Of a stretch of DNA of 64,000 bases, positions 58,413 to 64,000 are shown piece by piece. The stretch comes from an uncultured Microthrixaceae bacterium (lineage in GTDB: Bacteria; Actinomycetota; Acidimicrobiia; Acidimicrobiales; DATDAH01), in NCBI GenBank assembly GCA_964635055.1, contig CAZWMT010000001.1:211234-275233 (forward strand). Reading direction: 5' to 3'. Each line of letters begins with the position of its first letter. Position 1 is the first letter of the stretch. Below the pieces are notes generated by a model. It was not told the origin of the DNA, searched no databases, and saw only the letters and a program-made list of their open reading frames with translations. The translations under genes were made by a program, and so were the position numbers.

Positions 58413-58844
58413 ATGGCGAAGACCGTGCCTCCGGTGGTTTGGGTGTATCAACTGTCGACGGGCGACTGGGACTGGGACCAGAACTCCTATCGCCTCGAGG
58501 TGGCCGAGGGTGAGCGAGTGTCGTGGCCCGTCGGCAAGAAACAGACGAAGCGGGAACCTCAGGCCGGTGAGCGGTTGGTGTGTTGGTGGACGAAGACCAA
58601 CTCGTTTGAGCACGGCGTCATGGGCTGGGGAGTCCTCGACGGCCAGACGTTTGGCGCTGGCCTCCGGTGGCACCCGTACCCACCATCGAACCGTTGGGCC
58701 ATGAGACCGCTCTTGTCTGACGAACTCGAGGCCGTCATCGACAAGATTCGTGGGCGCATGCGCCAGGCGACGCTCTTCGCCGCCGAGGGAGATCTCGCCG
58801 TCGAACTGCTCGACGCCATTCGGGACGCTGACCGCAGCTTGTAG
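58413..58844 (+). CDS. small protein with PUA/EVE-like sequence pattern
   Basis: 143 aa. VWVYQLS...W...SWPVG...AGERLVCWW......HGVMGWGVL resembles an EVE/ASCH beta-barrel pattern. The fold assignment is tentative. Confidence 0.45.
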   Translation: MAKTVPPVVWVYQLSTGDWDWDQNSYRLEVAEGERVSWPVGKKQTKREPQAGERLVCWWTKTNSFEHGVMGWGVLDGQTFGAGLRWHPYPPSNRWAMRPLLSDELEAVIDKIRGRMRQATLFAAEGDLAVELLDAIRDADRSL

Positions 58845-58948
58845 CCAGAACTGAGCGCCGTCTGGTCGCCCTGTCACATCTGCCTCCGATAGGAGAGTCG
58901 ATGTAGTCGAAGCGCACGGGGCGCAGGTGGGGACTGGAGGGGGGAATA

Positions 58949-61900: not shown

Positions 61901-62323
61901 ATGCCCGCCGAGACGCTCCGGGCGATCCAGGCACAGATCGATCTTGTCCCTCGGCGCCTCCTCGACATCGATTCGCTGGTTGCCGCCAACTTCGAGTGGC
62001 TGCTCGCCGCGTCGAGCGACGGCGTCGACGTGCAGCGGTGGTGGCACATCGCCCGCCAATCGGCACGCCACCTCCGCACCCCTGGGCCGAACCTCAGCGC
62101 CCATCTCGAGAGTCGTGAGCCGCCGCAGGGAACCGTCTCGTGGGCCGGCGTGCCGAAGGCGTCACTCGCACTCGCGACGCTCGCCATTGCCGACGAGGAC
62201 AGTCGCGCCGAGGCAATCAGCCTCCTCGCCGAGGCCCACTCGTGGGCACCCCGACTGGTCGGCCGCGATCTCGTGCTCGCCTGTCTGCTCCAGTGGCTCG
62301 ATGACCAGGAGGTCGCCCCGTGA
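58949..62323 (+). CDS. large (1124 aa) protein of unknown function, DruH-like by size and position
   Basis: GTG start preceded by GGAGGGGGG. Coding-like composition throughout and no recognisable motif. Its stop overlaps the next gene's GTG. Confidence 0.8.
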   Translation: MEIAATEESTDPLRVERDLRMRLAGRRLIAEIGIDPALYRTTTRALKKVMSNSLDAYAERLANTYPALTATYLVAHGVYQYSAGDYWSGQAVHQMNRDLGGPAFEKAVRNLGLETFTNLLGSEKALRFITPILAHGGIPKYCLDDFFGLLLKDLGEGSADANDLLTVWRTRKTRFQNIDRPVQRFLLHGGELAVDLIDRCIDLVREHSRSGTVMSAEDAGLPSYVVRAFARREDKTPKGRSRPATTSGRPTISLDPWTAQGPQLTLPAVDRSLQHAAWHVQADQRSRVTAGPQTVQIPLNPAPAWGVELASLDKGVLRQTSFEGLDPLPALFFDPDTGRLMSAASGLRLRSVWVLAPDETRYEARDRADSSVALVEPELLPEPTGSWSGYTVRCFDLAGISSLQVTPPGADAPHTVRMLAVGERPDLVDDPLSGVTTAAGLAVFPATPSVHLPDAALDHLDQWRLRISVRDGDGTAPVSVGADGVTDEHGVIALDDLLPGNTLTAVDLVVQGPLGSDLRTSFAVVVGLQVNRPDRLLFPGDKTSGVTVRTGPDHLVNGERGEDGLRLDVPDLGDEIELDITAGSTSIELLVRVPRVQWGLSMIDDPVTQIGTEVVAVRADDVIDGHVSALVVHTGDGGHELTLALHGRDNTPLQKSDTYTASGREGRWVFDLARFRDTVKTSADSTLDFVLFIGMRPVTVARLRASLAIGDVTATSRCVEGFTSIRLDYDEPRAVKDRVLRLWSRDRPWDEPVGAPIPDGQLGFAEISGYDSIPPGEYRAELAIDDGWGSPKRPSRGAPHTAEITVGTHLDRQDYLNALNPDDPAAVLEVAASTGWIARHLDEAELAKVGPLALTAALHAITDDRGHDLSSPRFSAIGSLLTADETCFAKTITSAVTDGRCTPTEATRVALELVDRIEPPELRTSITGEMRGLWQTCPLAAIRFDLTASLSGEQQARLDEFLGWAPDADDPIPTGEPVNQMFAAMPAETLRAIQAQIDLVPRRLLDIDSLVAANFEWLLAASSDGVDVQRWWHIARQSARHLRTPGPNLSAHLESREPPQGTVSWAGVPKASLALATLAIADEDSRAEAISLLAEAHSWAPRLVGRDLVLACLLQWLDDQEVAP

Positions 62324-64000
62324 GTCTCGATCCACTGACGACGACGCGACGCATCTCCGACAACTATCGGAATTACCTCCGGTCCTCGTTCAGTCCCCGT
62401 CAGCAGGGTCTGGCCCGCGAGTTCGAGCTCGCGCTCAGCCACACCTTCCGGCTGACACGGGGCCCCTACCTCCAGGTCGATCCCCCGTTCGTCACCGGAT
62501 CCTCAGTGGCCGAGCTGATCGCCGAAGGCGTGCTCGACAAGGGCTTCGAGAGCCTCGGCGACGGGTTCCCGCTCGAGCGGCCCCTGTACCAGCATCAGGA
62601 AGAAGCGATTCGCAAGTCCGTCGGCGAGGATCGCAACCTGATCGTCTCGACCGGCACGGGCTCGGGCAAGACCGAGTGCTTCCTCTTCCCGATCATCGAT
62701 CACCTGCTCCGTGAGCGTTCCGCGGGCACCCTCGACCGTCCCGGCGTGCGAGCGCTGTTGCTCTATCCGATGAACGCCCTGGCCAACGACCAGGTGAAAC
62801 GTCTGCGACGACTGCTGGCGGACCTGCCCCACATCACCTTCGGCCGCTACGTCGGCGAGACCGCCGAGGGCCAGGTCGAGGCGGAGGACAACTTCCGCGC
62901 CCGCTATCCGAGTGAAGAGCGACTCCCGAACGAGTTGATCTCACGCGAGGTCATGCGGGAGCAGCCACCGCACATCCTGCTGACCAACTACGCCATGCTC
63001 GAGTACCTGCTGCTCCGCCCCCAGGACAGCACGCTGTTCGATGGCCCCACCGGCGATCACTGGCGGTTCCTGGCCCTCGACGAGGCCCACATCTACAACG
63101 GGGCGCAGGGCACCGAGGTGGCGATGCTGCTCCGTCGCCTCCGTGACCGGGTGATCGAGAGCGAGCCGGGGCGCCTCCGCTGCTTTGCCACCAGCGCCAC
63201 GCTCGGCAAGGGGCAGCAGGACTACCCCGAGCTCATCGAGTTCGCCGGGTCGCTGTTCGCCGAGCCCTTCGAGTGGCACGACGACGACCCGACCCGCCAG
63301 GACATCGTGGTCGCGACACGCAAAGACCTCGTCCGCGACGAGGCCGCCCACGAGATCCCCCAGGAGCTGTTCGCCGGCCTCCAGCGCGCCTTTCGCACTG
63401 GCGCATCGGCCGACGCGTTGGCCGCCCTGGTCGGCACGGCGAGTTCCGTCGAGGCGCCGACCGACGATCAGGAACCGCCTGCCTACCTGTACCGCCTGCT
63501 CTCACGGGACAAGAGCGTCGTCGCCCTGCAGAGTGAGCTCGAACGGGGGTCGGTGGAACTCGGCGACATCGCCACTCGGGTGTTCTCCGGTCCGACGGCA
63601 CGTGAGGACGTCGTCGCCCTGATCGACCTCTGCGTCGCGGCGAAGTCGGGCGTCGATGACGCCCCCCTCATCCCGGCTCGCTACCACTTCTTCCTACGGT
63701 CGCTCGAGGGCGCATTCGTGTGCCTGCACCCCCAGCACACCGACGGTGAGCCCTCACTGGTGCTCCAGCGCTTCGGGTGGTGTCCCTCGTGCAGTCGACA
63801 AGGTCGCGAAGCAGCCATGTTCGAGCTGGGCGTCTGCCGCAACTGCGGCGCCGGCTACCTGGTCGGCAACCACGAAGGCGGCGAAGGCGACGCCCAGAAG
63901 CTCAAGACCGCCGGCGACTGGCTCGCCACCCGCGAGTACTACGTGCTCGGCTCGGCGTATGACCCCGATCAGGCCGACGACGACGACGAGGCGGCGACGG
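62320..64000 (+). CDS. large DEAD/DEAH-box SF2 helicase with inserted zinc ribbon (DruE/DUF1998-helicase-like), 3' end outside window
   Basis: Hand translation is open from GTG 62320 to the window end. Motifs: LYQHQEEAI, STGTGSGKTE, LYPMNALANDQ, LALDEAH, FATSATL, ARYHFFLRSLEG, CPSCS...CRNCG. Confidence 0.85.
   Translation, partial: MSLDPLTTTRRISDNYRNYLRSSFSPRQQGLAREFELALSHTFRLTRGPYLQVDPPFVTGSSVAELIAEGVLDKGFESLGDGFPLERPLYQHQEEAIRKSVGEDRNLIVSTGTGSGKTECFLFPIIDHLLRERSAGTLDRPGVRALLLYPMNALANDQVKRLRRLLADLPHITFGRYVGETAEGQVEAEDNFRARYPSEERLPNELISREVMREQPPHILLTNYAMLEYLLLRPQDSTLFDGPTGDHWRFLALDEAHIYNGAQGTEVAMLLRRLRDRVIESEPGRLRCFATSATLGKGQQDYPELIEFAGSLFAEPFEWHDDDPTRQDIVVATRKDLVRDEAAHEIPQELFAGLQRAFRTGASADALAALVGTASSVEAPTDDQEPPAYLYRLLSRDKSVVALQSELERGSVELGDIATRVFSGPTAREDVVALIDLCVAAKSGVDDAPLIPARYHFFLRSLEGAFVCLHPQHTDGEPSLVLQRFGWCPSCSRQGREAAMFELGVCRNCGAGYLVGNHEGGEGDAQKLKTAGDWLATREYYVLGSAYDPDQADDDDEAAT

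Follow-up and report, generated by a model that had tools for sequence, protein, structure and literature searches.

Two overlapping genes at the downstream end of a 64,000-nt stretch of DNA from an uncultured Microthrixaceae bacterium (contig CAZWMT010000001.1 of assembly GCA_964635055.1, positions 211,234 to 275,233; this whole stretch is referred to below as the window) very probably form a complete two-gene Druantia type III-B system, composed of a diverged DruH-like partner of 1124 amino acids (aa) and a DruE helicase of 1688 aa. The Druantia type was described in 2018. The original prediction for this region had recognized in the pair the DruH-DruE layout of Druantia type III, and this layout was borne out by a full DruE with a DUF1998 domain, a single coupled large partner gene upstream of it, and no other component nearby. 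The type III-like assignment stood, with the subtype corrected to the compact III-B form, in which DruE lacks phospholipase D-like (PLD) domains.

The partner gene, the first of the pair, was located at 58949-62323 on the forward (+) strand with a GTG start, as given by the list of open reading frames (ORFs) and its translation. DruE followed at 62320-64000 (+), where the window holds the N-terminal 560 of its 1688 codons, reaching by profile matches from the RecA1 lobe through the inserted helical domain into the zinc-ribbon beta-barrel. Its frame opened with the GTG at 62320 and contained no stop through base 63999, confirming from the ORF list the predicted 560 open codons to the window end. 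The same GTG overlapped the TGA of the partner gene (62321-62323) by 4 nt in the sequence GTGA. The exact 1124-aa protein was found on eight public contigs, one of which (L001, 19 kb) extended downstream past the window, and an independent gene caller run on the identical public contigs returned the same three genes, including a conserved small gene of 143 aa upstream, with the same 4-nt overlap. The predicted GTGA overlap was therefore seen both in the sequence and in independent gene calls, and the 1124-aa gene and DruE are translationally coupled.

Beyond the window, on this identical contig, the full helicase spanned L001 8957-14023 and was 1688 aa long. Pfam matches comprised DEAD (3e-21), Helicase_C (4e-10), and the MZB/DUF1998 zinc domain (2.5e-12), the last at residues 1487-1562. 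Extension past 64 kb had been proposed as a check for this domain and for total helicase length. As the protein does not end soon after the window without DUF1998, it is a complete, full-length DruE. The PADLOC models for DruE1 (1.6e-193) and DruE3 (1.6e-182) matched strongly, with those for DrmA, DpdJ, and BrxH far weaker (1e-12 to 1e-26 overall; 1e-15 to 1e-24 for DrmA/DpdJ). The closest solved structure by sequence was E. coli DruE (9tu7; Himpich et al.) at 5.7e-90, compared with only 4e-14 for MrfA/YprA (6znp). A motif search in the translation placed superfamily 2 (SF2) motif I (GSGKT, aa 114-118) at 62659-62673 (+), motif II (DEAH, aa 254-257) at 63079-63090 (+), and motif III (SAT, aa 292-294) at 63193-63201 (+), the last being collinear with the A292 peptide of Mycobacterium smegmatis DruE. 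Three of the four SF2 motifs originally claimed were thereby located; motif Ib was not located separately. The CxxC...CxxC ribbon originally noted after the first RecA-like lobe was present as CPSC...CRNC (aa 488-509; 63781-63846, +), with CPSC at 488 and CRNC at 506, preceded by an ARYHFF motif at aa 453. It corresponds to the zinc-binding beta-barrel module given for III-B DruE by Bell et al. (PMC12458937). No PLD, Vsr, or other nuclease domain was detected by Pfam in the full helicase, and a separate scan of the C-terminal tail (128 residues, aa 1561-1688) at E values up to 10 revealed no nuclease domain either. A Vsr-like nuclease remnant in this tail (WEVEAAWPDAKVAIV...) was considered and had no Pfam support.

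Type III has been split into III-A, which is E. coli-like with two PLD domains in DruE, and III-B, with a compact DruE that forms a separate clade of the YprA tree (representative GIH50614.1) and most often lacks any nuclease domain (Bell et al. 2025, PMC12458937). As a large SF2 helicase of YprA-like type in which DEAD, Helicase_C, and DUF1998/MZB domains were all present, the 1688-aa protein carried the signature of Druantia, and it was accompanied by exactly one extra large gene, directly beside DruE and read in the same direction, as is characteristic of type III. Among the neighboring genes, no other Druantia component (DruA-D, DruM/F/G) was found, and no DISARM or BREX component was found near the pair. 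At 1688 aa, compared with 2114 aa for E. coli III-A, and with no C-terminal pair of PLD-like domains detected by Pfam in the full protein or its tail, the helicase was of the compact III-B kind. In gene order and number, the pair was the same as the III-A DruH-DruE systems of E. coli and Pseudomonas aeruginosa (YjiT-YjiV locus; 9tu7, 9tud). The DruE core was also the same, with RecA1, inserted helical domain, zinc-ribbon barrel, RecA2, and MZB, as were the predicted layout and size of the partner (1096 to 1119 aa there, 1124 aa here). The differences were that III-A DruE measures ∼2110 aa and bears a C-terminal pair of PLD domains that this helicase lacks, and that the partner is missed by PADLOC DruH3 and by Pfam PF27205/PF27201, its profile-profile similarity to DruH being not significant.

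The association of the partner with DruE was not peculiar to this contig. A full hidden Markov model search recovered at least 1980 clusters of the partner family at 50% identity with E values up to 1e-3, and 1065 at 1e-30; a word search had given only 74. Eighty related loci were taken from species-representative genomes of Acidimicrobiia, Chloroflexota, Gemmatimonadota, Bacillota, and others. A DruE homologue adjoined the partner gene in 63 of the 80, equal to 63 of the 64 assessable loci, since in 16 of the 17 loci without an adjacent DruE the contig ends within the partner ORF. The order was partner followed by DruE in 58 loci and reversed in 5, the spacing was mostly −19 to +62 bp, and the median DruE length was 1623 aa, compared with 2114 aa in E. 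coli III-A. The partner family strictly co-occurs with DruE, and the nearest relatives were metagenome-assembled genomes (MAGs) of Acidimicrobiia.

Some individual loci and family members departed from the common pattern. The sole assessable locus with ∼2 kb of downstream sequence and no detectable DruE was that on an Oscillochloris MAG contig (L031 5473-11773), which could be an orphan or degraded system. Fusions with S1 RNA-binding domains or with a UvrD-type helicase occurred in some DruH-like family members, and Bacillota versions reached ∼1700 aa with coiled-coil inserts and weak JetC/LmuB matches; these fusion and insert variants were P0027, P0039, P0053-P0056, and P0066, and those at L080 7785-12785 and L071 7806-12953. 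In one relative (L094, 10481-11454), a UvrD helicase gene abutted the end of DruE.

The partner was modeled with AlphaFold2 using an alignment of 48 sequences of its family (A1), with secondary structure assigned by DSSP and folds searched with Foldseek. The model was confident (mean predicted local distance difference test score [pLDDT] 87.9; predicted template modeling score 0.68). It consisted of an N-terminal all-alpha domain (aa 12-231; 58982-59641, +), a central beta-rich region (aa 251-806; 59699-61366, +) with about six beta-sandwich, immunoglobulin (Ig)-like domains by the DSSP strand pattern, their boundaries being judged from strand groups rather than coordinates, and a C-terminal all-alpha domain (aa 809-1119; 61373-62305, +) bearing the motif E1095...APRLVGRD1107LVLACLL. 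Invariant columns of A1 in the N-domain defined the motifs PILAHGGIP (aa 131-139) and RFLLxGG (aa 184-190). The predicted model therefore has the published DruH layout of a helical N-domain, about six beta-sandwich domains, and a helical C-domain, the likeness to the cryo-electron microscopy structure of DruH being one of described layout and not of superposition. Foldseek matches were to alpha-2-macroglobulin/complement and Ig-array proteins at a template modeling score of about 0.1, and one of the published DruH studies reported Ig matches of the same uninformative kind for DruH.

A further point of comparison was the III-B pair of M. smegmatis, in which the overlapping genes MSMEG_1253 (DruH, 1132 aa) and MSMEG_1254 (DruE, 1667 aa) protect against mycobacteriophages (Li & He 2026, PMC13316683) and the D1108A and E1096/1099A mutants of DruH abolish defense (PMC13316683). 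Both are two-gene operons with overlapping reading frames from high-G+C lineages, with similar sizes of the partner (1124 versus 1132 aa) and of the compact DruE (1688 versus 1667 aa), and in both DruE carries DEAD, Helicase_C, and DUF1998 with no PLD. Peptides of the M. smegmatis DruE were similar to and collinear with the helicase, residue 292 corresponding to 287, 1016 to 1034, and 1516 to 1544, as exemplified by LKRVSE-ECGPETS aligned to LDKVQRCECGPETS. For DruH, a 28-residue C-terminal peptide, SRETSLAELAEVVPQLVTIDLIIAELII (M. smegmatis residues 1089-1116), aligned best to partner residues 1088-1115 (EAISLLAEAHSWAPRLVGRDLVLACLLQ) with a score of 26 versus 1.8 for the next best, a score reached by 0 of 300 shuffles, and the E998 peptide landed at partner residue 1000, within 9 residues of its own coordinate. 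By this alignment, the functionally required E1096 and D1108 map to E1095 and D1107 of the partner, so that the C-terminal DruH motif appears to be common to both proteins. The systems differ in that the N-terminal and central peptides did not align. Peptide matching found no close relative of MSMEG_1253 among the best 150 partner-family representatives, and the link of the partner to M. smegmatis DruH is therefore suggestive rather than proven.

Several results weighed against a diverged DruH and spoke instead for the 1124-aa family being an independently recruited analogue, in which case the locus would stand for a separate type of Druantia with a sensing or effector chemistry of its own. 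Judged by its sequence, the partner cannot be recognized as a DruH, a correction to the original prediction: no match was found in Pfam, PADLOC (including its DruH3 models), or NCBIfam at E values up to 0.1, and seven distant family members from other phyla gave no DruH model in PADLOC or Pfam at E values up to 0.01, the sole PADLOC matches being coiled-coil noise (JetC/LmuB) in two Bacillota proteins. By comparison, E. coli DruH from the yjiT locus (1096 aa) matched 11 of the PADLOC DruH3 models, and the Pfam families PF27205 and PF27201 are present in its relatives. When A1 was aligned in hhalign to a set of 29 DruH sequences of the E. coli type (A2), the probability was 0.8%, and its alignment to the single E. 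coli DruH was also not significant. Domain by domain, with an enlarged profile, P values were 0.024 for the N-domain, 0.014 for the middle region, and 0.4 for the C-domain, none of them significant. The A1 profile had no match among PDB sequences, the deposited DruH 9tud included, and 9tud was absent from the top 50 fold matches listed for the partner model. The M. smegmatis comparison rests on short peptides translated from published mutagenesis primers (supplement, PMC13316683); among the DruH peptides only the C-terminal one was clearly significant, and those from the N-terminal and central beta-rich regions gave no alignment to the partner. Convergence could, moreover, account for an arrangement in which helical domains flank a tandem array of Ig-like domains.

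Nevertheless, length, three-part domain order, number of beta-sandwiches, gene order, and translational coupling were all as in DruH. The hhalign alignments of the N-domain and middle region, although weak, were fully collinear across the whole of both regions (the C-domain gave nothing), and that of the N-domain paired the invariant ILAHGGIP of the partner family (aa 132-139) with the invariant LFSEGGLP of E. coli-type DruH (aa 135-142), so that the paired GG[IL]P motifs have almost identical residue numbers. The C-terminal motif held in common with M. smegmatis DruH lay at the same coordinate. Furthermore, DruH exists in E. coli in two or more variants: the protein of the yjiT locus (1096 aa; L088 10001-19648) matched the deposited 9tud (1119 aa) only over the N-terminal ∼250 residues (1e-21). 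Since even these two are alike only in the N-domain, DruH diverges fast outside it. An analogue was accordingly judged improbable, and a diverged DruH was preferred. Were the partner an analogue after all, it would constitute a separate lineage whose only companion is a compact DruE without nuclease, with the toxic or effector activity residing in the partner itself, and the locus would belong to a distinct Druantia type rather than a subtype, unseen by current defense-finding tools. Much less credible still, and in our estimation close to negligible, was a housekeeping MrfA/YprA-type repair helicase, or another YprA-based defense system (DISARM, ARMADA, Dpd), beside an unrelated upstream gene. 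The SF2 core and MZB domain are indeed common to DruE, MrfA, DrmAB, and DpdJ, with a 3′-to-5′ polarity expected here as for MrfA, and the DpdJ, DrmA, and BrxH models did match weakly. The DruE models scored ∼600 bits, however, compared with 50 to 90 bits for DrmA/DpdJ, and MrfA is a protein of ∼750 aa without the inserted helical and zinc-barrel modules, its companion being the MrfB exonuclease instead of a DruH-like protein. The set typical of ARMADA/DISARM (a BrxHII/RapA-like helicase and a PglX-like methyltransferase) was absent from the genes of the 19-kb locus L001, as were a PLD gene and the MrfB exonuclease, and the upstream gene co-occurred with DruE in 63 of 64 loci. A match of the 1124-aa protein to a different known family, such as a DISARM or BREX component, was also looked for, and none was found in Pfam, PADLOC, or NCBIfam.

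The 143-aa gene (58413-58844, +; ATG start), lying 104 bp upstream on the same strand as the pair, had been read as an EVE/PUA-like reader of modified bases that might serve Druantia as an accessory sensor. It is a real conserved gene, as its homologues formed nine clusters at 59 to 100% identity with many invariant Trp, Gly, and Pro positions, and it remained beside the pair in the identical contigs and in an 87%-identical relative. Its AlphaFold2 model was of a mixed beta/alpha character, and its non-significant fold matches included a YTH domain at rank 3 (E = 0.47) and, at rank 39 (E = 2.0), the small nuclear magnetic resonance protein 2gbs, an EVE-type domain. The domain assignment nevertheless found no backing. 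None of the nine homologues matched EVE, ASCH, PUA, or YTH in Pfam at E values up to 10, the profile matched no PDB sequence at E values up to 10, and the model itself was poor (pLDDT 54.5), with a best Foldseek match at E = 0.2 and a probability of 0.08. Scans of the 143-aa and 1124-aa proteins against Pfam, PADLOC, NCBIfam, and PHROGs likewise returned nothing useful. The proposed linkage to the pair did not hold either, synteny being confined to the identical contigs and the 87%-identical relative. The gene was missing beside partner loci of 57% and 41% identity and from all 80 related genome loci, and homologues at 84%, 67%, and 59% identity adjoined unrelated gene clusters. An EVE-type accessory sensor is thus very unlikely; the 143-aa gene is a neighbor and not a Druantia component, and it seems to mark or travel with variable defense islands. 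Its homologues were seen beside an unknown 1220-aa protein, a 222-aa protein, a DEAD/ResIII helicase, and an HTH protein (L089 5084-12605), beside SLFN_AlbA_2, an N6_N4 methyltransferase, and ResIII (L092 52-7008), and beside a GmrSD_N fragment and a DDE transposase (L093 2488-6348).

The original prediction had described the mechanism of type III as still unclear, a statement that is now outdated, as several papers and preprints of 2026 address it. These studies describe type III DruE as a dimeric, ATP-dependent 3′-to-5′ DNA helicase that engages exposed single-stranded DNA or forked substrates, and one group found DruH to be a 3′-5′ exonuclease that recruits DruE via its C-terminal helical domain. 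In M. smegmatis, the pair blocks the circularization and replication of phage DNA, and DruH alone is toxic, its toxicity being neutralized by DruE (PMC13316683). From this published type III work in E. coli, P. aeruginosa, and M. smegmatis, we infer that the DruE described here would act as an ATP-driven 3′-to-5′ DNA translocase or helicase loading on phage DNA exposed in single-stranded or forked form. The partner, for its part, would bind or process single-stranded DNA and engage DruE through its C-terminal helical domain, and together the two would stop the circularization and replication of phage DNA. By analogy, the same sensor/helicase partnership acting on phage replication intermediates is most likely. 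This DruE has no recognizable nuclease, so that any destruction of phage DNA would have to be the work of the partner, of host nucleases, or of the unwinding as such. For the same reason, the killing or clearing step is the most tentative element of the scheme, and the means by which phage DNA is cleared or blocked when DruE has no nuclease domain becomes a mechanistic question posed by the locus.

The locus represents a further example of the compact subtype, which was named in 2025 (PMC12458937) and shown to work in 2026 (PMC13316683). It also exposes an annotation gap, in that a large partner family occurs almost always beside DruE, yet this protein and seven of its relatives matched no Pfam or PADLOC model. 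Rule-based tools that require DruH would therefore be expected to report only an orphan DruE at this locus. A profile built from the partner family would probably recover many compact Druantia systems from Acidimicrobiia, Chloroflexota, Bacillota, and other phyla.

The surroundings of the pair are those of a variable region or defense island. Upstream in the window were an IS110-family transposase (DEDD_Tnp_IS110 and Transposase_20; 53058-54548, +), an HTH_17 protein (54570-55235, −), a 425-aa PDC-S01-type AAA_14/DUF4143 ATPase (55409-56686, +; PADLOC candidate system PDC-S01, 1.3e-78), and a pentapeptide-repeat protein. The IS110 element and the HTH_17 protein suggest that the island borders on a mobile or variable region. 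Downstream of the window, L001 carried an AbiLi/AbiLii-like pair (14564-16496), consisting of an AAA_21 ATPase (8e-87) and RloB (3e-24), followed by a PDDEXK_13/REase-ARP nuclease (16558-17475, −), with a DUF429 protein also present; these genes are additional candidates for defense functions within the island. When plasmids were searched by tblastn, the partner had no match and DruE returned only distant DruE homologues (<32% identity) and no actinobacterial system.

Two further sets of ORFs were observed in this region. Farther upstream, two overlapping and apparently coupled ORFs of 726 and 298 aa (49423-51603, +, and 51600-52496, +) had no Pfam match at E values up to 0.001; as high-G+C DNA gives many spurious long ORFs, they are regarded as putative genes. 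Convergent with DruE, and overlapping its 3′ end by 11 nt, was a 128-aa ORF (L001 14013-14399, −). It had no Pfam or PADLOC match, and its position was not conserved in the 80 more distant loci. Counterparts were kept in place (L095 9062-9448, −; L096 14581-14913, −) where the partner was 87% and 41% identical, the ORF itself being 73% and 39% identical, respectively (E = 1e-21 for the latter), and it may be a clade-specific accessory or an antisense-encoded gene.

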